Below, piece after piece: positions 11,029 through 25,869 of a DNA stretch of 64,000 nt. Positions within the stretch are counted from its first letter, which is position 1; every line of letters starts with the position of its first letter. The notes under the pieces are model-generated. The model was not told the origin of the DNA and ran no database searches. It saw only the letters and a list, made by a program, of their open reading frames with translations. Both the position numbers and the translations under genes were made by a program. The DNA comes from Escherichia phage VTCCBPA_211. The stretch lies in the sequence record PP989838.1, one strand, 5' to 3'.

Positions 11029-12276
11029 ATGTCAAAGATCATTTTGGGAGACACAGGTTGTAAGGAATGTATCTCTCATGGTCGTGATAAAACCCACAAC
11101 CACATGATTCTCTTCCGTAACGAAGAGACTGGTGAGGAGTGGGGAAGTTGTAACCGTTGTGGGAATTACGAAGTGTTCGAAAAGGGCACTACACCTACTC
11201 CAAACGAGAAGAAAGAGTTATCCCCTGAAGAGTTGAGAGAAGTCTTAGATGATTGCTTAGAGCTTCCTCAGGGTGAACTTACTCGCCGTTTAATCCCTAA
11301 AGCTGTATCAGAGCGGTTTGAGTGTCGTATTGGCCTCAGTCAAACTGATGGTCAGACACCAGACAGTTACTTCTTTCCTCGTGAACGTGATGGAAACATT
11401 GTCGGATACGAGGTTAAGCTGCTAGATAGTAAGAAGTTCTATTACGTCGGCAGTGTGAAAGAAGCAGATTTGTTCGGTATGGCACAAGCTCAACGTGGAG
11501 ATGTGTACAACAAGAAGCTGTTCATTTTTGAAGACCCGCTATCCTGTATGTCAGGTTTCCATGTCCTTACAGCTTTTACAAATGCAACAAATATTAAACC
11601 AGCATGTGTTTCTTTACCGTTCGGTGCAGGTTCAATCTCTTCTGTGTTGTCTCGTAACCGAGACTTCGTAAATGGTTTTGAGGAGGTTGTGCTCTGCATG
11701 GACAACGATGATGCAGGTGAGATAGCTTTAACAAAAGGTCGTTCTTTATTCCCTCATGTTAAGTTTGCTCGTATTCCTAAAGGAACTTTCCCATACAACG
11801 GTGTGGAGAAAGAGATTAAGGATGCGAATGACATGCTTCTGTCTGGTCGTGGTCAAGAGTTATTCAACATTCTCAAGTACTCAGCAAAGCGGGAATCTCC
11901 TGCTGGAGCTGTAACAATCTTTGATTGTCTTGATGATGCTCTGAAGAAAGCGGAGTGGGGTATCCCATATCCGTGGAAGACTCTGAATGAGATGACCTTC
12001 GGTATTCGATGGGGAGAGGTGGTAGCAATTGGTGGTGGAGTAGGGAGTGGTAAAACACTCATTGCTCACGAGCTGGTTGCTCATCTGTGCTTAGAGCATG
12101 GTTTTAATGGAGGTGGCTTCTTCTTGGAAGAGAAGGTAGGCATGTCTGTTAAGAACATTGCTGGTAAGTCAGCATCAATTCCTTTCCACCGACCTGATGT
12201 TGAATATGATGAGGAGGATTTGCGTAATGAAGCACTTCGTTATGCAGACAAATTCTTCTTGTATGACAACTTCGGT
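11029..12276 (+). CDS. DNA primase-helicase (T7 gp4-like), exon 1
   Basis: N-terminal Zn finger CKEC...CNRC, TOPRIM-like VVLCMDNDDAG, Walker A GGGVGSGKT; ends at YDNFG, matching T7 gp4 HLYDSFA; strong AAGGAGGA SD. Confidence 0.8.
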
Positions 12277-12997
12277 TAACACAATGGCCGAAGTAAAACT
12301 AGGTGAATTCAGGGAAAGCTAAGTCGAAAGATATGCCAATCCTGAGCGAAGCCCTTCTCCTCCTATAGCACAAGGAGGTAATTCATGAAACGAATCACAG
12401 GATACGAAAACTACACCATTTCTGAAAACGGTGAGGTTTTTAATAACAGAGGTGCTCAATTAAAACCTTTTGTGAATAAAGGCAGAAATGAGTACTTGAG
12501 AGTGACACTAAGCTGTAGAGGGAAATCTAAACATTTTCTTGTTCACAGATTGGTTGCTCAAGAATACCTTAAAGATTTTAACCCGAATCTCCAAGTAGAC
12601 CACATGGATGGTGACAGTAGAAACAACCACCACTCAAACCTCCAAATGGTTACTTGCAAAGAAAATAACTCACTTGCTTCACAAAGAGAGTGGGAAAAGG
12701 GTGGTAATCAAAAACATTCTGATGATACAGTAAGGGAGGCCATAAGGCTTTCTCTAGATATGTCAACAGATAAGGTTGGGGAATTACTAGGTATCTCAGG
12801 GAGACAAGTCAGACGATACAGAAGTTTGACAAGTCGAAGATTTGTTGGAGAAGGGAACGTGCAGAGACTATCCGAAAGGAGTACACTGGAAGCTAATGAC
12901 AGTGGAAGCGCCTAGCCCCTTAACAGGGTGATGATATAGTCCAATCCCGTGGGAAACTGCGGGCAGTAGCCATGATGCTACGGGTAAAGGAGTTGCG
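12277..12997 (+). mobile_element. group I intron in the primase-helicase gene
   Basis: P1: exon end CTTCGGT pairs with internal guide GGCCGAAG including the U-G wobble at the splice site; P4-like TCAGGGAAAG / AATCCTGA; R-like CAGAGACTA and S-like GATGATATAGTCC; G at 12997 before the in-frame exon 2. Confidence 0.6.
12385..12915 (+). CDS. HNH homing endonuclease (intron-encoded)
   Basis: HNH-family motifs (FLVHRLVAQEYL ... DHMDGDSRNNHHSNLQ); sits inside the intron with an AAGGAGGT SD. Confidence 0.8.
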   Translation: MKRITGYENYTISENGEVFNNRGAQLKPFVNKGRNEYLRVTLSCRGKSKHFLVHRLVAQEYLKDFNPNLQVDHMDGDSRNNHHSNLQMVTCKENNSLASQREWEKGGNQKHSDDTVREAIRLSLDMSTDKVGELLGISGRQVRRYRSLTSRRFVGEGNVQRLSERSTLEANDSGSA

Positions 12998-13558
12998 TCC
13001 TTTATTGAATTATTGCAAAATGAATGGGAAGACATTAAACAGTGTATCCGTTTCTGGGTAGTTGAAAACCAGTGTAAGTTCATCATCCTTGATAACATTA
13101 CCGCTCTGGTGTCTCATTTAACACCTTCAGAGATTAACACTGAAATCAGTAAGATTGCTTCCGAGCTTGCTGGTATGTGTAAAGAGTTAGACTTTACCGC
13201 TTTCGTGCTATCTCACCTTAATGCTCCGGCAGGTGGTGCTCCTCATGAAGAAGGTGGACAGGTACGTGAAGTACAGTTCACTGGCTCTCGTTCTCTTATG
13301 CGTTGGTGTCAGTGTATCATTGGCTTTGAGCGTGACAAGCAAGCTGACGGCTTAGCTAAGAACCTCTCAGTCATTCGATTACTGAAAGAACGTAACTACG
13401 GTCAGACAGGTGTATGTTATACTAAGTATATCAGTGAAACCGGTAGACTTGTAGAAAGGGAAGACTTTGAAGTTGATGAAGATAATCCATTCGTTTTAAC
13501 TAACGGAGAGGATGCAGCTTCTCTCGTCAACCAAGCAGATGGAGCTTCACCGTGGTAA
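12998..13558 (+). CDS. DNA primase-helicase, exon 2 (helicase C-terminal part)
   Basis: [14 protein letters not shown] (Walker B-like, compare T7 DVIILDHISIV) and downstream helicase motifs; reading frame is open upstream of the track start; exon start inferred from the splice prediction. Confidence 0.7.
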
Positions 13559-14109
13559 AGAAAAAGAAGAAAGTGTTTGCATTCGATATCGAGAGTAATG
13601 CACTGTACGATGACATAACTAAAGTATGGTGTATTTATATCTTCGATGTTGAAACTGGTGAAAGGTGGGGCTATCGGCCTCACCAAATTGAAGATGGGAT
13701 TCGTAAACTTACAGAAGCAGATGTACTGGTGGGTCACAATATTATTGACTTCGACCTTTGTGCTCTGAAGAAGATGTATCCCAATCTGATTAACTATCGT
13801 TTTAACGTCTTCGACACTTTATGTCTTAGTCGATATCTTAAACCTGACCGTATTGGTGACAGTCCTGAGTATCCGAAAGGCGACCCTAGACGTGGCCCAA
13901 GAGGTCATGGTTTGAAGCAGTGGGGTGAGTTCTTAGGAGAGCTTAAGGGCGATTATGGTGAGCAAGAGGAAGCATGGGATGCTTTCACTGAAGATATGTT
14001 TACTTATTGTGAACAGGACGTTAACTTAACTGTTAAGGTTTATCTTTTCTTGTGTGAGCTCACGGGATTTGACCCTTACGACCCACCTTCATTATATTGG
14101 AAAATGTAA
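13552..14109 (+). CDS. DNA polymerase I family 3'-5' exonuclease domain protein (separately encoded)
   Basis: Exo I FDIESN, Exo [12 protein letters not shown], Exo III YCEQDV; collinear with the T7 DNA polymerase N-terminus; ends in a stop after the exo domain. Confidence 0.75.
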
Positions 14110-14110
14110 A

Positions 14111-15481
14111 ATGATTGTTATCCCGATTAACCAAATTGAAGATAAGGTTGCTCAACAACCTGATATCACTGTTGGTCGTCACTTCATTGAACAGTTGATT
14201 AACAACAATTTAGTTCCAGACGGTATCTGTCCCATCATTACTGGTGGGGCTGTTCGTGATGCTGTTCTTAACAATATAGCACCACATGACATTGATATCT
14301 TTATTGTCAGAGGGCAGCTTCCTGCTGGTAGAAACACTTTCACATCAACTGACCGTTGGCAAGCTCTTGGAAGAGAGATTGAAAGTAATGTGAAGGAATG
14401 GCTAGAGTCGCAAGATATTGAGTATTCATCACTTCTTGCTGAAGCTACAAACGAATCCTATGCGGGGGGTTCTCAATTAACATTCACTGATATTATTGAG
14501 TTTCAGTGGAATGGGGTTCGTATCCAATTCATGTTTAATTATCCTACTTCTATTGAAGAGATATTGGATAATTTTCCTATGATGTGCCGTGGTGCGATGA
14601 CTCTTGACAACCTATTCATGACTCCTCATGGATATTTGGCTATGACCGCTCCTTGCCCGGTGGTTGTTTCTAGTCGTGAAATCAGATACGTTCACAAAAA
14701 GTGGCCTAATTCACAAGTGTTAAGATTCTCAGCTCCATCTGTTGCATATCAATATATGGCCCAAACTCGATACCTTCCTACACCTCAGCCAGTTAGTCAT
14801 CTGGTTAGTGGATTAGGTCAGGTTTCTCTTATTGAGGATACAACAAGTGCTCAATATTGTGTTAACCGAGACATGAGTCTATTCTTTGGAATCCCTTATG
14901 AAGAGATTCTATTAATGTCAAGCGTTCACGGGTCTGGTCAGATTAGTGCGTATTGGTCTGAAGGGTTGACAAATTTAACGACTAACACGGGTGGTGATCT
15001 GCTTGGTCGAGAAGATGAACCTAACCGACACAATGCAATTGAAGGGGTTTTTGTAGCCCCTGCAATGCGTAGAGCACAAGAGTCACGAAGAGTAAGCCCT
15101 ACTCGTAGAGCATCTTTTGAAGAAGCTCTCGGTGTTACAAGTGATTCTATGGAGCGATGGATGGCTAGACCCTCTCGTGGTCGACCAAATGGTTTAACTG
15201 TTAGCGCACGTCAGTTCTCTGGTCAGGGTTTTGCTGTCGGTGATATCAACGCACCTGTTAGGGCTGTGTGGACTGATGAAGGTGTGGCCCAAGATGTGGT
15301 AGGCAGTCTCTCCGATCTTGATACTCCTTCTCATGAGGAACTCGCTGAGGCTGTCAGCCGCAATCTCGCTGATCGCTTTATTACTAACAACCCTGAAGTA
15401 TTAGAACCTCAAACCCGTACAGTTCGGTTTGCTGATGAAGCGGGTCGTGGAATCTCTTTTGACGTAGAAACAAATAACTAA
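14111..15481 (+). CDS. nucleotidyltransferase (CCA-adding enzyme / poly(A) polymerase head-domain-like)
   Basis: GGAVRDAVL...PHDIDIFIV matches the GGxVRD...DxD signature of class-II tRNA nucleotidyltransferases; ATG at 14111. Confidence 0.45.
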   Translation: MIVIPINQIEDKVAQQPDITVGRHFIEQLINNNLVPDGICPIITGGAVRDAVLNNIAPHDIDIFIVRGQLPAGRNTFTSTDRWQALGREIESNVKEWLESQDIEYSSLLAEATNESYAGGSQLTFTDIIEFQWNGVRIQFMFNYPTSIEEILDNFPMMCRGAMTLDNLFMTPHGYLAMTAPCPVVVSSREIRYVHKKWPNSQVLRFSAPSVAYQYMAQTRYLPTPQPVSHLVSGLGQVSLIEDTTSAQYCVNRDMSLFFGIPYEEILLMSSVHGSGQISAYWSEGLTNLTTNTGGDLLGREDEPNRHNAIEGVFVAPAMRRAQESRRVSPTRRASFEEALGVTSDSMERWMARPSRGRPNGLTVSARQFSGQGFAVGDINAPVRAVWTDEGVAQDVVGSLSDLDTPSHEELAEAVSRNLADRFITNNPEVLEPQTRTVRFADEAGRGISFDVETNN

Positions 15482-15490
15482 GGAATAAGA

Positions 15491-16024
15491 ATGAGTTTAC
15501 TAGGAAGTATTGAACTGCACGATGTAATTGACAATGGCTATCTGAATGCGGAGCATAAATATGTTAACGCTGCTAGTGTGGATATCCGTATTGGTGATAC
15601 TATCCTTGTTGAAGAACAGGCTGATGGCATCGTTGATATTGATGCGAAAGAGAATCTTCAGTGGAAGGAAGTAAAGATTCCTGAAGAGGGTTTGGTTATC
15701 ACTCCGGGTCAGTTCTTCTTGGCTCACTCCATGGAGGAGTTTAATCTTCCAGATAACATCTCAAGTCTGTTTGTCCTACGTTCATCTATGGCTCGTTGTG
15801 GTTTGAACCACCTCCACGCCGGGTGGGCAGACGCAGGGTTTAACAGCAGTAAGCTGACATTTGAGTTCCATAACGTAACCAAGCATCATAGCTTACGAGT
15901 TCGTGCTGGTATGCGTGTTGGTCAGATGGTGATGTTTGAGCACTCTCATGCAGGGGAACATTCCTATGCAGTGAAGGGTCGTTATAATAACTCTGAAGGT
16001 GTAGTTGCATCTAAAGGTGTGTAA
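15491..16024 (+). CDS. dcd: dCTP deaminase family protein
   Basis: SVDIRIG, LRSSMARCGL, GWADAGFNSSKLTFEFHN, GMRVGQMVMFE and C-terminal VVASKGV align with E. coli Dcd. Confidence 0.65.
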   Translation: MSLLGSIELHDVIDNGYLNAEHKYVNAASVDIRIGDTILVEEQADGIVDIDAKENLQWKEVKIPEEGLVITPGQFFLAHSMEEFNLPDNISSLFVLRSSMARCGLNHLHAGWADAGFNSSKLTFEFHNVTKHHSLRVRAGMRVGQMVMFEHSHAGEHSYAVKGRYNNSEGVVASKGV

Positions 16025-16231: not shown

Positions 16232-16425
16232 AAAAGTGGATTGTTCGTGTACATGATAACACGACTGGAGAGTTAGTAGCTGTAGATTTTGTTAATACTC
16301 GAGACCACGCCCGTAGGGTCAAAAACCAATACAAGTCTACTTTTAGACTCAATAAGGTTACAATAGGAAAAGCTTTCGTAAACAGTGAAGGTGCTTTTCT
16401 TTCCAATAGTAAGGTTTATTATTAA
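16228..16425 (+). CDS. small paralogous protein family member A (65 aa)
   Basis: Shares W..., TR..AR..KK and C-terminal YY pattern with the next two ORFs and with 18319..18528. Confidence 0.45.
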   Translation: MKKWIVRVHDNTTGELVAVDFVNTRDHARRVKNQYKSTFRLNKVTIGKAFVNSEGAFLSNSKVYY

Positions 16426-16634
16426 TGAGACCAATCACTATGAGAAAATTTTGGTTAGCAAAGATTGAGTGGGCATCAGGTGGCATGACTATGACTGCAC
16501 TACCCACTCGCCAACAAGCTCGAGATTTTAAAAAGACTATGCTTACTGGTGACGTGGTCAATAGTATCAGTATCCATAAGGCCAAGGAGTATTCTTCTGG
16601 TCGTGTTTATATCAGCGGAAAGGTGCATTACTAA
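16425..16634 (+). CDS. small paralogous protein family member B (69 aa)
   Basis: Paralog pattern; start overlaps upstream stop (TAATGA). Confidence 0.45.
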   Translation: MRPITMRKFWLAKIEWASGGMTMTALPTRQQARDFKKTMLTGDVVNSISIHKAKEYSSGRVYISGKVHY

Positions 16635-16843
16635 TGAAAAAGATGTGGGCTATTCATGTTGTTTGGGATCTTGAGCAACACATGAGAAAAGATAGCATCA
16701 AATTGTTTGACACTCGCAAAGAGGCTCGTATTGCTAAGAAACAGTTGAAGACTCTGGGCACAATAGTAAAAAGCGCTGACATACATCGCTGGTATGAAGG
16801 CCCTAACACTGGTTCTTTTATGTCTAAAGTAATTTACTACTGA
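16634..16843 (+). CDS. small paralogous protein family member C (69 aa)
   Basis: Paralog pattern; coupled start. Confidence 0.45.
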   Translation: MKKMWAIHVVWDLEQHMRKDSIKLFDTRKEARIAKKQLKTLGTIVKSADIHRWYEGPNTGSFMSKVIYY

Positions 16844-16915: not shown

Positions 16916-17245
16916 ATGTTAGATTTGAGTAAAGTGGCCCCGCCCACTGAAGAGATTACAAAATCCAAGGTGATGCAACAGTTTTATCATCGTGATATGC
17001 TTGGTCGCTTTATCAAGAATCGTGATGTTGTTGCTTGGTCTATTGGTAATCAGGGGTATCTGTTGAAGGTTCTTCAGGTTACAGGTTCAACTGCTAAGCG
17101 AGTTAAGGTGTATGACCCTGAAATGGGGCGTTCTAAGTCAGTAGACCCACAGAACTGCATCGTAATTACCCAGCAGGTAATGGATAATATTGCACGTAAC
17201 GTTGCTAACTCAGTTGAACTTGATGGAGAAAACCCAAATGCATAA
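16916..17245 (+). CDS. hypothetical protein (109 aa)
   Basis: ORF downstream of a promoter-like AAATGTATA motif. Confidence 0.4.
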   Translation: MLDLSKVAPPTEEITKSKVMQQFYHRDMLGRFIKNRDVVAWSIGNQGYLLKVLQVTGSTAKRVKVYDPEMGRSKSVDPQNCIVITQQVMDNIARNVANSVELDGENPNA

Positions 17246-17801
17246 GAATGTCTTTGATTTACCTGAGATTGGTCGTGACAGTTATAGCATGTTAGACCGG
17301 TCCGACCTATCAATCTCTCGCCTTGAAACGATGCAAGGTATGATTAGTGGAAACAGCCTAGAACACATCCTGAGCTGCTTACAAGCTAACATGGAACTCT
17401 TGCATATCAAAGCTAAAAACTACCACTGGAACGTCTCTGGTGCAGGATTTCAGGGTGTTCATGGTATGTTTGACGAGCTGGAAGATTACGCACGACAGGT
17501 AGGAGATCGTATTGCTGAACGTATGCGTTACCACTGTGTTAAAGTGGATGCTACAGCAGCTAACTACCTCTCTCATGCTTGGTTCTCAGAGGGTAATGCT
17601 GATCTAGACATGGACGGTATGCTCTCTGATATGTGCATGACCTTGATGTGTATTATTGAGAAGATGGATGAGTTTGATGGCGATTTAGCCACCTACCCTG
17701 TCGATCAGAGTATGCTTCAAGAAATTAATGAAGGTCTTGGCAAGTATTGCTACTTCGTCAAGAGCAACATGTCCCACTCAAGTGGTGATGTGTCTTACTA
17801 A
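17238..17801 (+). CDS. Dps-like ferritin-fold protein
   Basis: LHIKAKNYHWNVSGAGFQGVHGMFDELEDYARQVGDRIAERM matches the Dps signature; ATG at 17238 with GGAGA SD. Confidence 0.6.
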   Translation: MHKNVFDLPEIGRDSYSMLDRSDLSISRLETMQGMISGNSLEHILSCLQANMELLHIKAKNYHWNVSGAGFQGVHGMFDELEDYARQVGDRIAERMRYHCVKVDATAANYLSHAWFSEGNADLDMDGMLSDMCMTLMCIIEKMDEFDGDLATYPVDQSMLQEINEGLGKYCYFVKSNMSHSSGDVSY

Positions 17802-17861
17802 AACCTCCGCCCTGTCTCCTAACCCGAGGTGGGGCGAACTTATTTATAAGGATATAGATAT

Positions 17862-18041
17862 ATGTTATCAGCAATCGTATGGGGTATTTGGGCTATCTTT
17901 ATTGGTGGTGGTATTTATTGGGCTTCTGGTAAGCTTATTGAAGAAACCCCTGATAAGAAAGGTGAGATTCAAACAGCATCAACTATCATGGTTATCGTAG
18001 CTGTTGTTATCCCATTCCTGCTTCACCTCCTGACTGCATAA
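17862..18041 (+). CDS. small two-helix membrane protein (59 aa)
   Basis: Two hydrophobic segments (AIVWGIWAIFIGGGIYWA and IMVIVAVVIPFLLHLL); preferred over the overlapping 17728..18000 frame, which runs into the Dps gene. Confidence 0.3.
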   Translation: MLSAIVWGIWAIFIGGGIYWASGKLIEETPDKKGEIQTASTIMVIVAVVIPFLLHLLTA

Positions 18042-18049
18042 GGATTTAC

Positions 18050-18322
18050 ATGACTAAAGTAATTAAGTTTTATAGTGATCAGTGTGCTCCATGTAAAGCA
18101 ATGGCTCCTACCTTTGAGAAGGTTGTTAAGGAGTTTGATGTAGAAGTGGAAGAGATTAACATCCTTGAAGGTGATGGTCGTGAACAAGCTGTTAAGTATG
18201 GTGTACGAAGTATCCCTGCTTTCGTTGTACCTGACCGTAACAGTGGTGCACACTACAGCCTCTCTGGTATGCAGACCGAAGCAAACCTGAAAGCATTCTT
18301 AACTACTGCCCTAGGTGTTTGA
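18050..18322 (+). CDS. thioredoxin
   Basis: CAPC active-site motif in a thioredoxin-sized protein (90 aa). Confidence 0.7.
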   Translation: MTKVIKFYSDQCAPCKAMAPTFEKVVKEFDVEVEEINILEGDGREQAVKYGVRSIPAFVVPDRNSGAHYSLSGMQTEANLKAFLTTALGV

Positions 18323-18528
18323 TTATGAAAAAATATTGGACGGTGGTATATTACCTCTACCAAGACCCGGCTATACCTGTTACAGAGCACTTTGCTACTC
18401 GTAAAGATGCTCGCCGTTTTAAGAAGGCTCTTAAGATGGCCCCAAAGATTTATAGTAAAGTAAGCTTACATAAATCAACATTGTCAGAGATGGGAACCTT
18501 AGTGGTTTATTATGTAAAAGAATATTAA
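18319..18528 (+). CDS. small paralogous protein family member D (69 aa)
   Basis: Same pattern as 16228-16843 ORFs (TRKDARRFKK ... VVYY). Confidence 0.45.
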   Translation: MIMKKYWTVVYYLYQDPAIPVTEHFATRKDARRFKKALKMAPKIYSKVSLHKSTLSEMGTLVVYYVKEY

Positions 18529-18543
18529 TAAGGAAATTCACGG

Positions 18544-19200
18544 ATGAATGAACAATTACAAGCAACATTAATCGAAGCTATGGGAAGTGATCGTAGCGTA
18601 GTAAACGCAGCTCGAGTTTCCTTTGGCGTAACCCGTGAAGGTGATTTAAATGAACGTGATGAACGTCTCATCAACTTCCTCGCAAGAGAGAAGCATGTTA
18701 CTCCATTCCGACACCCACAAGTCAGTTTCCGATGCAAAGCACCTATCGCAATTGCGAGACAGTTGGGCAAGCATCAGGTTGGATTCTCGTGGAACGAAAT
18801 GTCCCGGCGGTATAAAGATGGAGCAGTTGAAGTCTTCATCCCTAAAGAGATTTTTGCGAGACCTTCGGACCTCCATGCAGGTTCAGGGGTTCAACTCATC
18901 GATGGAGAACGAGCTGAAGCGTTAATGTTGATTAATGATGCATATGAAGCTTCTCTAGCAGCATATGACAAGTTGATTGAATTCATTGCACCAGAGCAAG
19001 CTCGATTTGTTCTTCCTCAGGGGATGATCACTGAGTGGGTATGGACTGGTTCTTTGTATGGCTGGTTTGAGTTATGTCGTCAGCGACTCTCCTCTCACGC
19101 TCAATATGAAGTTCGAGTGTTTGCTAAATCTCTGGATGAAGAGATGGCTAAACTTTACCCAATCTCATGGGCAGCTCTGAAGAAAACTTTGGAGAATTAA
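18544..19200 (+). CDS. thyX: flavin-dependent thymidylate synthase ThyX
   Basis: ThyX-like architecture with an RQRLSSHAQ segment corresponding to the ThyX RHR...S motif. Confidence 0.65.
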   Translation: MNEQLQATLIEAMGSDRSVVNAARVSFGVTREGDLNERDERLINFLAREKHVTPFRHPQVSFRCKAPIAIARQLGKHQVGFSWNEMSRRYKDGAVEVFIPKEIFARPSDLHAGSGVQLIDGERAEALMLINDAYEASLAAYDKLIEFIAPEQARFVLPQGMITEWVWTGSLYGWFELCRQRLSSHAQYEVRVFAKSLDEEMAKLYPISWAALKKTLEN

Positions 19201-22196: not shown

Positions 22197-22448
22197 ATGT
22201 CTATTGTAAAATCTGTAAATATCATTGATGTAATGTCTAACAATCGTATGGTTAAATGGAAGTTCACCAATAATCACGGCATTGCTAATATCATTGCAAA
22301 CCAGATTAGTCATAACCCAAAAACAGCTCGTACTAACGTAATCCTACGTGGTGCTGATGGTAAATTCATTTCTTATAAGAATAAAGGTGTAGAGAAAGAA
22401 TTCCGTGTTGCAGTAGAAAACCTCATCCCATTCCCTAAAGGATTTTAA
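22197..22448 (+). CDS. hypothetical protein, paralog pair member 1 (83 aa)
   Basis: Shares KTARTNVILRGADGKFISY...LIPFPKGF with the next ORF. Confidence 0.45.
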   Translation: MSIVKSVNIIDVMSNNRMVKWKFTNNHGIANIIANQISHNPKTARTNVILRGADGKFISYKNKGVEKEFRVAVENLIPFPKGF

Positions 22449-22449
22449 T

Positions 22450-22734
22450 ATGAATAAATTAGCTATGGTTCAAATTCGAGACACTTTCCCTCTGCGTGAG
22501 AATATGAAACCACGCACTTGGTCTTACCTGCTAGCTGAGAGTAAGACTATCAACAAATATTTTGTAGAGATTGGTTGTATCCCAACCAGTATTACTTTGC
22601 TTCCTCATAAAACAGCTAGAACTCATGTGATGCTACGTGACAGCAAAGGTAAGTTTATCTCTTACCGTGATGAACGAATCAATAGCGATATCAAAAATGC
22701 TATGGAATCTTTAATGCCGTTCCCAAAAGGTTAA
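22450..22734 (+). CDS. hypothetical protein, paralog pair member 2 (94 aa)
   Basis: KTARTHVMLRDSKGKFISY...LMPFPKG. Confidence 0.45.
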   Translation: MNKLAMVQIRDTFPLRENMKPRTWSYLLAESKTINKYFVEIGCIPTSITLLPHKTARTHVMLRDSKGKFISYRDERINSDIKNAMESLMPFPKG

Positions 22735-23336: not shown

Positions 23337-24682
23337 GTGAGCAACCCGGACGCTCTTCCATTTTTGACAGAGATGACTGTCGCTGATATAATCTCTAAGC
23401 AAGCAAAGCACGGAGTGAGTTTCAACCGAAGAAATGCTCGGTGGTATGTTCACCTCCTTAAAGAGATTATTGTTAATATTGACAGAGAGTTGATTCCTCT
23501 CTTACCTAAGATGAGATTAGACGGCTCTACTTATATGAAGCCGTTTAAGAAGTCTGGAGCTTTACAGAAGTGGCCTCAAGCTTATTGTGATAGGGTTGGG
23601 CTGAAGAGAGAAGATATTGGTGGAGCTTTCACCTGTGTCGAATATGTAGACTTTGACCCATCGAAAGATGCACGAGTTAAAGAAGCTCTTATGGATGAGG
23701 GCTTTCTTCCTCCAGAGTTTAATGTATCTAAGAAGCCTTGGAATACTTTCGAAATTAAGAAAGATATGAGAAAGTATGGAACATACCAAGCATGGTATAC
23801 TGCTTGGATGCGAGGCAATGCTAAGCAGAAGCAGACAGCCGAGATGGTTGACGCTGATATTAAGAAGTTCTTAGAAAAGCATTTCAGGTTTAAAACTAAG
23901 AACTATATGAAGGCTTACGTATTTGGTTTGGGATTAAACCCTAATCGTCGTAATCCTGTAACGTTTGATGAGATTAAGAAAGCGCTAGCCACATCAAACA
24001 AGTGGCCTACAGCTCCTACAAACCTCGAGGAGACTCTTGAAGAAGGGTTAGGGGGTGAGCTAGGGAGTGTCGGAAGTTTGCTTAAGAGACGCGTTGTAGC
24101 GGCTCACAGGCTAGGTCTTATCAGTGGACTTATAGCAAAGGAACGCGAAGATGGTAAACTTTCGGCAGAAGCTAACAGCTGCGCTACGCCGACTTTTCGA
24201 TTCAAACATCGTATCGTGGTTAATATTCCCTCCCGTGGTCTGTTTGGTCACGAGTGTCGCAGTTTGTTTGAGTCTGACTATAACTCAGACAGTGATCACT
24301 CTCGTCCTTTCGTTATTACTAACGCTGTTCCTGATGGTTGTTATATACGAAAAGGTACTAACGTAATTTACGAGAAAGGTAAGCCGGGGAAGAAAGACAA
24401 ACCTGTAGGCGCTTACAAATATTACATACCCGCTGGTAAAGAAGTATTCTTAGGGTATGATGGTTCTGGACTTGAACTTCGTATGTTAGTGCATTATCTT
24501 GTGAAAGAGTGCCTTGACATGATGGAAGAAGCCAAAGCAGAGAACGATAAAATTAAGTATCTAAGGGCTGAGAAAGGTTTAGAGGCTGCTTATACTTATC
24601 GAGAGGTTCTTCTCTCAGGTGATATCCATTCCCACAACCAGAAACTAGCTGGCCTACCAACTAGAGATAATGCAAAGACGTT
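23337..24682 (+). CDS. DNA polymerase I family polymerase domain, exon 1
   Basis: Motif A LGYDGSGLELRML and start of motif B RDNAKTF, collinear with T7 DNA polymerase; GTG start with AAAGGAG SD. Confidence 0.75.
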
Positions 24683-25370
24683 TAACACAATGGGCGTCTA
24701 TAAATTCCTTTAATTCGGTGGACATCTAGAACAGATAATACCGAGCCAAGCCATCCAATCTGCCTTGAAGACAAGGAGGTGGATTATGATTTGCAGGATT
24801 TGTAAAGAAGATAAAAGCGAAGACAATTTCCACAGAAACAGAACAAACGTGACTGGACTAGACTACAGGTGTAAAGCTTGTAGGAGAGAAGAAGCACGAA
24901 TTGGAAGAGAGAGCAATTACTTCCAACACTACTGTAGAGGAAAGAAATCTGAATGTAAGATAAAGGGTTATGATTTTGACTTAACTCCAGAGTTCTTAGA
25001 AGAGATTTGGACAGGATATTGTCCAATATTTGGTGTAGAAATCTCAAGAGCTTCGGAAGGAAGAGGATCTCACAACTCAGCACATTTGGACAGAATAGAT
25101 TCAAGTAAGGGTTACCTAATAGGTAACGTATCTTGGATTAGCGGCAGAGCAAACCGTATAAAATATGATGCTACTGCTAAAGAGCTTAGATCTATTGCAG
25201 ATTGGATGGAAGGTGTAACGACTAGTCGTGATGAGTTTAGCGACGTAGGGCCAAGCGGCTCGAAACAAGGAACCTCTTAAAAGAGGAAGAGATAGTCTGC
25301 TCTGCATGGGGACATGCAGCAGTTCATAAGAGAACGGGGGGAGTGGTAGCGTACTCCCTTGAACATCAGG
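24683..25370 (+). mobile_element. group I intron in the DNA polymerase gene
   Basis: Begins with the same 11-mer TAACACAATGG as the helicase intron; guide GGGCGTCT pairs with exon end AGACGTT; R-like AACGACTAG and S-like AAGAGATAGTCT; G at 25370; splicing restores KTF-IYGFLYGAG. Confidence 0.6.
24786..25280 (+). CDS. HNH homing endonuclease (intron-encoded)
   Basis: HNH motifs (HLDRIDSSKGY ... NVSWISGRANRIK), Cys pairs; ATG at 24786 with AAGGAGGTGG SD. Confidence 0.75.
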   Translation: MICRICKEDKSEDNFHRNRTNVTGLDYRCKACRREEARIGRESNYFQHYCRGKKSECKIKGYDFDLTPEFLEEIWTGYCPIFGVEISRASEGRGSHNSAHLDRIDSSKGYLIGNVSWISGRANRIKYDATAKELRSIADWMEGVTTSRDEFSDVGPSGSKQGTS

Positions 25371-25869
25371 TATCTATGGATTTCTATATGGGGCAGGCGC
25401 AGCTAAGATTGGAGAGATTGTTGGAGGAGGCGCTCAAGAGGGTGAAATTCTCAGAGAACGTTTCTTAGCAGAATGCCCTTGTATCCCAATTGTCTTGGAG
25501 AGAGTACAAGCTCGTGCAGAAACAGGCACTCTTGAAGGTGTGGATGGTCGTAAGTTGACCATGAGACGGGATGCCACTGGTAAAGTTATGGTTCATAAAG
25601 CACTAAACACTTTACTTCAGAGTGCGGGTGCTATTGTCATGAAATATTCTATTCTCTTCACAAACAAGTGGGTAGATCAGCAGAACATTAGGGGTAACAA
25701 AGTAATTGACTACCATGATGAAGCTCAGTGGTCTGTTAACCGTAACGATGTTGATAAGATGAAAAAGATAGCTGAGACTTGTGTCAAGAAGGCGGGTGAG
25801 TACCTAAACATGCACTGTGAGCTAGCTTCTGATTGTAAAATCGGACTGAATTGGATGCAAACTCACTAA
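25371..25869 (+). CDS. DNA polymerase I family polymerase domain, exon 2
   Basis: In-frame YGFLYGAGAAKIGEIVGGG (rest of motif B) and motif C VIDYHDEAQW; the reading frame is open upstream of the track ORF. Confidence 0.7.

Follow-up and report, generated by a model that had tools for sequence, protein, structure and literature searches.

Among sequenced relatives, the thioredoxin gene of a phiEco32-like Escherichia phage follows nucleotide-metabolism genes and not the T7-like DNA polymerase

The thioredoxin encoded in the 64-kb stretch of Escherichia phage DNA analysed here (the window) has a distribution among related phages that follows, as judged from gene content, the genes of nucleotide metabolism and not the T7-like DNA polymerase encoded in the same arm of the genome. 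Our preferred, though still tentative, reading is that the protein acts as a thioredoxin in redox reactions and, by way of the host ribonucleotide reductase (RNR), supports the supply of dNTPs. Host thioredoxin acting as the clamp of T7 DNA polymerase is the textbook case, and the original prediction had proposed that the phage protein may take over this part and free the phage from its need for host trxA or, alternatively, may serve ribonucleotide reduction. The comparison among relatives leaves the first interpretation somewhat disfavoured: a shortened loop of the thioredoxin-binding type is present in the polymerase, but it does not co-occur with the phage thioredoxin. The second interpretation fits better, as the thioredoxin tracks the dNTP genes, with the reservation that the phage encodes no RNR and would need that of the host.

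Over the 8 kb between positions 14000 and 22000, the window shares 93–96% nucleotide identity with Kuravirus genomes, including those of Escherichia phages Paul, NJ01, 172-1 and CHD5UKE1, and its gene order is that of the annotated Paul and phiEco32 genomes. The window belongs with these phiEco32-like podophages of the C3 morphotype, which have genomes of ~77 kb. The thioredoxin gene is the ortholog of phiEco32 gp65 (96.6% amino-acid identity), which has been on record since 2008 with the annotation 'thiol-disulfide isomerase and thioredoxin', and the same gene is carried by the Kuravirus and C3 phages SU10 (gp65), Paul (gp067), 7-11 and Privateer. A tblastn search found the gene in 126 phage records, mostly from Escherichia (92), followed by Proteus (8), Salmonella (7), Cronobacter (6) and a few others. 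Mass spectrometry of SU10 identified the product from 4 peptides, with 52.8% coverage; the thioredoxin and a Dps-domain protein, both abundant in that experiment, were among the few middle genes common to all five C3 phages sequenced at the time (PMC4281155). A coupling of the C3-phage thioredoxin to the T7-like polymerase was put forward in 2021 by the authors describing Privateer, who class the thioredoxin under stress response (PMC7881722). Because both the gene and the polymerase idea have been published, we regard the thioredoxin gene and the polymerase-coupling hypothesis for this phage group as already known.

Table 1. Positions of the thioredoxin gene, its neighbours and the polymerase genes in the window
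Feature	Position	Strand	Description
3'-5' exonuclease subunit, separate gene	13552..14109	+	Pfam PF01612; PHROG 38876/403; phiEco32 gp74 type
dCTP deaminase (DCD)	15491..16024	+	Nucleotide-metabolism module found with the thioredoxin
Dps-like ferritin-fold protein	17238..17801	+	Constant neighbour of the thioredoxin in related phages
AAGGA ribosome-binding site	18040..18044	+	5 nt 5' of the thioredoxin ATG; read from the sequence
Thioredoxin gene	18050..18322	+	ATG start, 90 aa; CAPC at residues 12-15; cis-Pro at 56
ThyX flavin-dependent thymidylate synthase	18544..19200	+	Pfam PF02511, E = 1.8e-43; two genes downstream of the thioredoxin
DNA polymerase exon 1	23337..24682	+	Residues 1-448 and two bases of codon 449; thumb, palm motif A YDGSGLELR, first half of motif B RDNAKTF
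Thumb-tip segment homologous to the T7 thioredoxin-binding domain	23505..23666	+	Codons ~57-110; between helices H and H1; hhalign, MAFFT, AF2
688-nt insertion in motif B	24683..25370	+	Between RDNAKTF and IYGFLYG; HNH ORF 24765..25280
DNA polymerase exon 2	25371..25869	+	Remainder of motif B IYGFLYG, fingers, motif C YHDE

The thioredoxin protein matches the Pfam Thioredoxin profile (PF00085) with E = 2.5e-13 and 50.4 bits against a cutoff of 23.5, over profile positions 22-102 of 103. As the match begins at position 22, the protein is without the N-terminal beta1-alpha1 unit of bacterial thioredoxins. It is assigned to PHROG 22 ('thioredoxin domain') and aligns with residues 24-105 of E. coli TrxA in searches against PDB chains (E = 1.8e-7). 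The AF2 model, built from a 15-sequence alignment, has a mean pLDDT of 92.3 and a beta-alpha-beta-alpha-beta-beta-alpha topology, and the folds closest to it are E. coli TrxA structures (TM 0.81, rmsd 2.1 A, 28-29% identity), not glutaredoxin or NrdH. All features used to define the thioredoxin family, namely a score above the PF00085 threshold, a CxxC pair combined with a cis-proline (I55-P56) and the thioredoxin fold, are found in the phage protein, which bears out the original prediction that the phage encodes its own thioredoxin with a CAPC motif. The scores remain below the NCBIfam equivalog cutoffs (49.1 bits vs 96.8 for TIGR01068 and 34.8 vs 138 for NF006898), and from the sub-cutoff TIGR01068 score we classify the protein as a member of the superfamily and not as a canonical TrxA. 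The ribosome-binding site of the gene overlaps the stop codon of an upstream 59-aa ORF. An exhaustive profile search collected 17,837 proteins of the thioredoxin superfamily, given without gene context, many of which are similarly short (80-92 aa).

The residues invariant in the alignment of the phage thioredoxin family are C12, P14, C15, A19, P20, R53, the cis-proline P56 and G73, the last corresponding to G92 of E. coli thioredoxin. Judged by the invariance of C12, P14, C15, P56 and R53 across the family, the CxPC redox site is under selection. With E. coli TrxA the protein has in common the core fold, the CxPC pair, the cis-proline and equivalents of R73, I75 and G92; it differs in overall sequence (28-31% identity), in the missing beta1-alpha1 unit and in having Ser for Gly74. 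The active site reads QCAPC in place of the canonical WCGPC, so that W31 of the E. coli protein is not kept. The buried Asp26 of E. coli thioredoxin tunes the active-site cysteine, and at the corresponding position the phage family has an invariant lysine, Lys6. Because of this replacement and of the lost tryptophan before CxxC, the redox properties of the phage protein may differ from those of canonical thioredoxins.

The thioredoxin gene lies in a cluster for dNTP metabolism, with the order dCTP deaminase, Dps-like protein, thioredoxin and ThyX. In phiEco32 the thioredoxin is likewise placed between the Dps-like gene and ThyX; unlike phiEco32, the window has an extra 69-aa ORF (18319..18528; PHROG 4939, absent there in phiEco32) separating the thioredoxin from ThyX. 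This ORF and two further 69-aa ORFs (16425..16634 and 16634..16843) appear paralogous, having in common a (T/S)RK(D/E)AR..KK motif and a Y-rich C-terminus, and a similar pair of ORFs is found further on (22197..22448 and 22450..22734). At 17808..17836, directly 3' of the Dps-like gene and before a small membrane ORF and the thioredoxin, an 11-bp GC-rich stem-loop precedes a run rich in T; it may act in the middle operon as a terminator or as a processing site. Between the exonuclease and dCTP deaminase genes, a 475-aa ORF (14054..15481) has no Pfam match and is assigned to PHROG 12715 'nucleotidyltransferase' (E = 4.6e-260), while the LUZ24 annotation has no gene so named. Elsewhere in the window, at 3601..8244, is a cluster of phiEco32-type COOH-NH2 ligase, amidoligase and glutamine amidotransferase genes that is common to LUZ24-like contigs; an amidotransferase and a RimK-domain protein are annotated at the matching position in LUZ24.

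Searches for RNR found no NrdA, NrdB or NrdD matches in the 64-kb window or in positions 1-50 kb of phiEco32, and no RNR Pfam match among the large ORFs. A published comparison also describes Kuraviruses as lacking RNR (PMC7881722).

The DNA polymerase gene (23337..25869, + strand) begins ~5 kb downstream of the thioredoxin on the same strand. It is interrupted, and its exon borders were placed by reference to the Paul gene, which is continuous and codes for 614 aa; once spliced, the product shares 97% identity with P0016, a database protein without the interruption. Its best sequence match in the PDB is T7 gp5 (phmmer E = 2.5e-36 vs 5e-9 for the Klenow fragment), and the AF2 model of P0016 (pLDDT 92.6) likewise has T7 gp5 as its best fold (Foldseek E = 3.4e-26 vs ~3e-16 for Bst and Taq). 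An alignment of 72 sequences of the polymerase family matches T7 gp5 in hhalign with probability 100 and E = 1e-95. The family A motifs of the spliced product are YDGSGLELR, RDNAKTFIYGFLYG and YHDE, with a tyrosine at the position of T7 Y526. By these sequence and fold comparisons the enzyme is a T7-like family A polymerase (CDD cd08643; cluster 5 of PMC10201439), and the claim that such a polymerase is encoded in the same arm as the thioredoxin is upheld.

The polymerase starts at about T7 residue 205 and therefore has no fused N-terminal exonuclease domain, which makes it a split subtype of T7-like PolA; the exonuclease/polymerase split is already recorded in the annotations of phiEco32 and LUZ24. 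Split T7-like polymerases with a half-size thioredoxin-binding domain (TBD) were described in a survey of PolA enzymes in 2023 (PMC10201439). With T7 gp5 the window polymerase has in common a homologous thumb insertion between helices H and H1; it differs in the separate exonuclease, in a TBD-like segment ~23 residues shorter and in the interruption of its gene by an insertion bearing an HNH ORF. The closest parallels are the 'DNA polymerase parts I-III' of LUZ24 and the S-SBP1-like PolA (Czernecki et al. 2023), which have separate exonuclease and polymerase genes and a shortened TBD as well. The polymerase gene of LUZ24 is likewise broken by an endonuclease-bearing insertion. The split genes are adjacent in S-SBP1 and ~9 kb apart in the window, and LUZ24-like phages differ further in having neither the thioredoxin nor the dNTP-metabolism genes.

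The 688-nt insertion in the polymerase gene is preceded by U and ends in G, as in group I introns. A permissive scan of positions 24600-25450 with the group I intron model (Rfam RF00028) gave 19.4 bits and E = 0.019, below the gathering score, with a match that includes the GAAGAGAUAGUCU core; a scan of the whole window at Rfam gathering thresholds gave no match. From these features the insertion is probably a group I intron. Many relatives of the polymerase are N-terminal fragments of ~450 aa (P0028, P0030-P0032 and others), which suggests that other phages carry an insertion at this site too. Exon 1 has 90% and exon 2 70% nucleotide identity to phage Paul, with the boundary of the mosaic exactly at the insertion site, a pattern that would be expected if homing were accompanied by co-conversion or if the downstream part had been exchanged. 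A second interrupted gene is that of the primase/helicase, where an insertion at 12276..13015 carries an HNH ORF (12385..12915); the exons of this gene (11029..12275 and 13016..13558) have 97-99% nucleotide identity to the uninterrupted gene of Paul. This insertion begins with TAACACAATGG, identical to the first 11 bases of the polymerase insertion, and for that reason the two insertions look related.

The polymerase thumb bears directly on the proposal that the phage thioredoxin is the processivity subunit of the split T7-type polymerase, docked on a TBD-like thumb and making replication independent of host trxA. We consider this reading unlikely, if still the strongest of the alternatives. 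The original prediction had called for inspection of the thumb for a thioredoxin-binding insertion, naming a polymerase without such a loop as grounds for rejecting the proposal. A segment homologous to the TBD is present, although shortened, and the proposal is not refuted on these grounds. The segment (~53 residues) is flanked by a long thumb helix (residues 31-55) and a helix at 111-120 in the AF2 model of P0016, and aligns to T7 TBD residues 262-338 in both hhalign and MAFFT. Measured over the same alignment columns, the segment has 63 residues in the window polymerase vs 86 in T7. The C-terminal half of the segment is clearly related to T7, with GGAFTCVEYVDFDPSK in the window polymerase vs GAPYTPVEHVVFNPSS in T7.

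In a molecular-dynamics study of the T7 complex, thioredoxin is contacted by TBD residues E319, P325, T327, V329, E330 and Y265, the contacts on the thioredoxin side being K90, R73, I75, I72 and A93; T327, V329 and E330 contact I75 and R73 (PMC5984650). The window polymerase retains equivalents of T327, V329 and E330, and the phage thioredoxin retains R53 (= R73), I55 (= I75), P56 (= P76) and G73 (= G92), leaving a docking surface that looks intact. From this alignment, the thumb has a shortened TBD-like segment that could dock a thioredoxin, with nothing in our results to favour the phage protein over host TrxA as the partner. The location of both genes in the same middle-gene arm, the detection of both products by mass spectrometry in SU10 and the conservation of the thioredoxin across the C3-morphotype phages examined also agree with a role as processivity subunit. 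The C-terminal tail of the primase/helicase (13016..13558) is acidic, and its last residue is aromatic; we take this tail to resemble the C-terminal tail of T7 gp4, which contacts the polymerase thumb, and it counts in favour of the same reading.

Against the processivity role, the ~23 missing TBD residues include the region around T7 Y265, and the thumb segment is modelled by AF2 as a self-folded element with pLDDT ~90. The contact residues retained by the phage thioredoxin are those common to thioredoxins generally, whereas G74 is replaced by Ser and K90 by Leu. Among the aligned polymerases, the residue equivalent to T7 E330 (E, D or W) shows no pattern with respect to the presence of the thioredoxin. 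The thumb also has a second helical expansion after H1 (residues ~130-228, approximately nt 23724..24020), modelled with high confidence and comprising 101 residues vs 45 in T7 and 71 in LUZ24-like polymerases over the same alignment columns; this expansion could itself contribute to holding the DNA.

The relationship between the thumb segment and the thioredoxin was assessed by comparison across relatives. The N-terminal 311 residues of the polymerase matched 312 phage records by tblastn, including 154 from Pseudomonas (LUZ24-like), 13 from Aeromonas and 8 from Vibrio, and none of these three genera is represented among the tblastn matches of the thioredoxin; by tblastn, the thioredoxin was found in none of the 154 Pseudomonas records with this type of polymerase. 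Most contigs that the polymerase profile matched in IMG/VR were marine and T7-like, with the match confined to the fingers and palm; the close relatives were L004, L006 and L007 only. The thumb segment is 61-63 residues long in 13 of the 13 relatives aligned, including the LUZ24-like ones that lack the thioredoxin. The whole genome of LUZ24 contains the polymerase, the exonuclease and the primase/helicase, and no thioredoxin (profile search, E up to 1), ThyX, dCTP deaminase, Dps or RNR. The same holds for three LUZ24-like loci (L006, L093 and L094), where polymerase, exonuclease and primase/helicase are present and no thioredoxin, ThyX, dCTP deaminase, Dps or RNR is found within ~10 kb of the polymerase. 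The thioredoxin is also absent at the L091 locus. Co-occurrence of the thumb insertion and the phage thioredoxin thus fails across relatives, and since the segment has equal length in relatives without the thioredoxin, it is independent of the phage thioredoxin.

The thioredoxin was found only alongside the dCTP deaminase, ThyX and Dps-like genes, as in the window, phiEco32, Salmonella phage 7-11 and L090, with dCTP deaminase as its only such companion in the stretch of L004 that was examined. In all of these but L004, PhoH also accompanies the thioredoxin and these three genes. The set of dCTP deaminase, Dps-like protein, thioredoxin and ThyX recurs in L087, L090 and L095-L098, and the nearest metagenomic relatives of the thioredoxin are found in arrays of the form Dps-x-x-Trx-ThyX and DCD-Trx-x-Dps-NrdD. 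In two relatives that encode RNR, Aeromonas phage APT65 (L085) and L092, a short thioredoxin-like gene of 72-76 aa directly adjoins nrdB/nrdA; its product is 29-35% identical to the window thioredoxin, compared to 29% for E. coli TrxA, and is alike in architecture. The APT65 and L092 genes may or may not be orthologs of the Kuravirus thioredoxin, their identities (21-43%) being no higher than to E. coli TrxA. Matches in Achromobacter phages were not treated as orthologs, as these are N4-like Schitoviridae with a longer ORF, an N-terminal extension before WCGPC and a weak match (38% over 64 residues).

That the thioredoxin co-occurs with dCTP deaminase, ThyX, Dps-like and RNR genes makes a role in ribonucleotide reduction a better fit than a role at the polymerase. 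The protein is probably redox-active and part of a middle-gene module for nucleotide supply together with dCTP deaminase, the Dps-like ferritin, ThyX and PhoH. Under the preferred reading, the phage thioredoxin would be made in quantity after infection, and host thioredoxin reductase (TrxB) would use NADPH to maintain it in the reduced state. The reduced protein would then pass electrons to enzymes that form disulfides, above all the host class Ia RNR, NrdAB, and the raised flux of dNTPs would feed phage replication. As no RNR is encoded by the phage, the client would have to be the host enzyme. In E. coli, Trx1 or Grx1 serves as the reductant of NrdAB, and a weakness of the redox reading is that TrxA, TrxC and glutaredoxins are already available in the host.

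One phage thioredoxin has been studied experimentally, that of cyanophage Syn5, which is redox-active and raises genome replication (preprint 10.1101/2025.10.05.680603). The redox reading agrees with this precedent, with the conservation of the CxPC pair, with the gene's constant association with those for dNTP enzymes and with the adjacency to RNR genes in relatives. The window thioredoxin resembles the phage thioredoxins or glutaredoxins that serve RNR, such as T4 NrdC and the Syn5 protein, in being a small phage CxxC redox protein encoded among genes of dNTP synthesis. The window phage differs in having no RNR gene.

Structure predictions in comparable systems also tell against docking on the polymerase. 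For a split T7-like PolA whose TBD is half-size, AF2 did not place host thioredoxin on the polymerase (PMC10201439), and in Syn5 AlphaFold3 docked the host thioredoxin, not the phage thioredoxin, on the polymerase TBD (preprint 10.1101/2025.10.05.680603). The linkage of the thioredoxin gene to metabolism genes and not to the polymerase weighs on the same side. A specific form of the processivity reading, in which the thioredoxin would be the dedicated subunit of a three-part replicase made of polymerase, exonuclease and thioredoxin and would replace host TrxA on the shortened TBD, appears rather unlikely to us.

Another scenario, improbable in our view, is that the thioredoxin and the Dps-like ferritin form a pair for oxidative stress or iron handling that is not specific to RNR, acting for example against damage by peroxide, including that made in air by ThyX as a flavoenzyme, or keeping proteins of phage or host reduced while infection proceeds. 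The thioredoxin lies within one to four genes of the Dps-like gene in the window, phiEco32, 7-11, L090 and the loci of P0144 and P0148; the sharing of both proteins by the five C3 phages and their abundance in SU10 (PMC4281155) are in accord with such a pair, as is the stress-response classification by the Privateer authors (PMC7881722). However, no peroxiredoxin or other thioredoxin-dependent antioxidant enzyme was found in the window, and the peroxide role of ThyX is our own inference. Gene linkage cannot separate this scenario from the RNR reading, because the neighbourhoods always hold dNTP enzymes too. Dual use, with the phage thioredoxin both reducing RNR and docking on the polymerase thumb, is very unlikely: it can draw on the evidence for both component readings and on E. 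coli TrxA, a single thioredoxin that reduces RNR for the cell and serves the polymerase of T7, but it takes on the weaknesses of the processivity reading and is less parsimonious.

If a phage of this group did supply its own clamp, this would be a neat variation on T7 with a possible effect on host range. A three-part replicase would be the first demonstrated case of a virus-encoded thioredoxin as processivity factor, and it would explain why the thioredoxin is retained in all C3-morphotype coliphages despite the lack of RNR. The comparison among relatives favours a more ordinary function, that of assisting dNTP supply as a redox protein. We found nothing on the trxA dependence of Kuraviruses or phiEco32 in the searchable literature; Kuraviruses grow on E. 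coli K-12, for which trxA, trxB and grxA mutants exist, making the role of the phage thioredoxin accessible to experiment.
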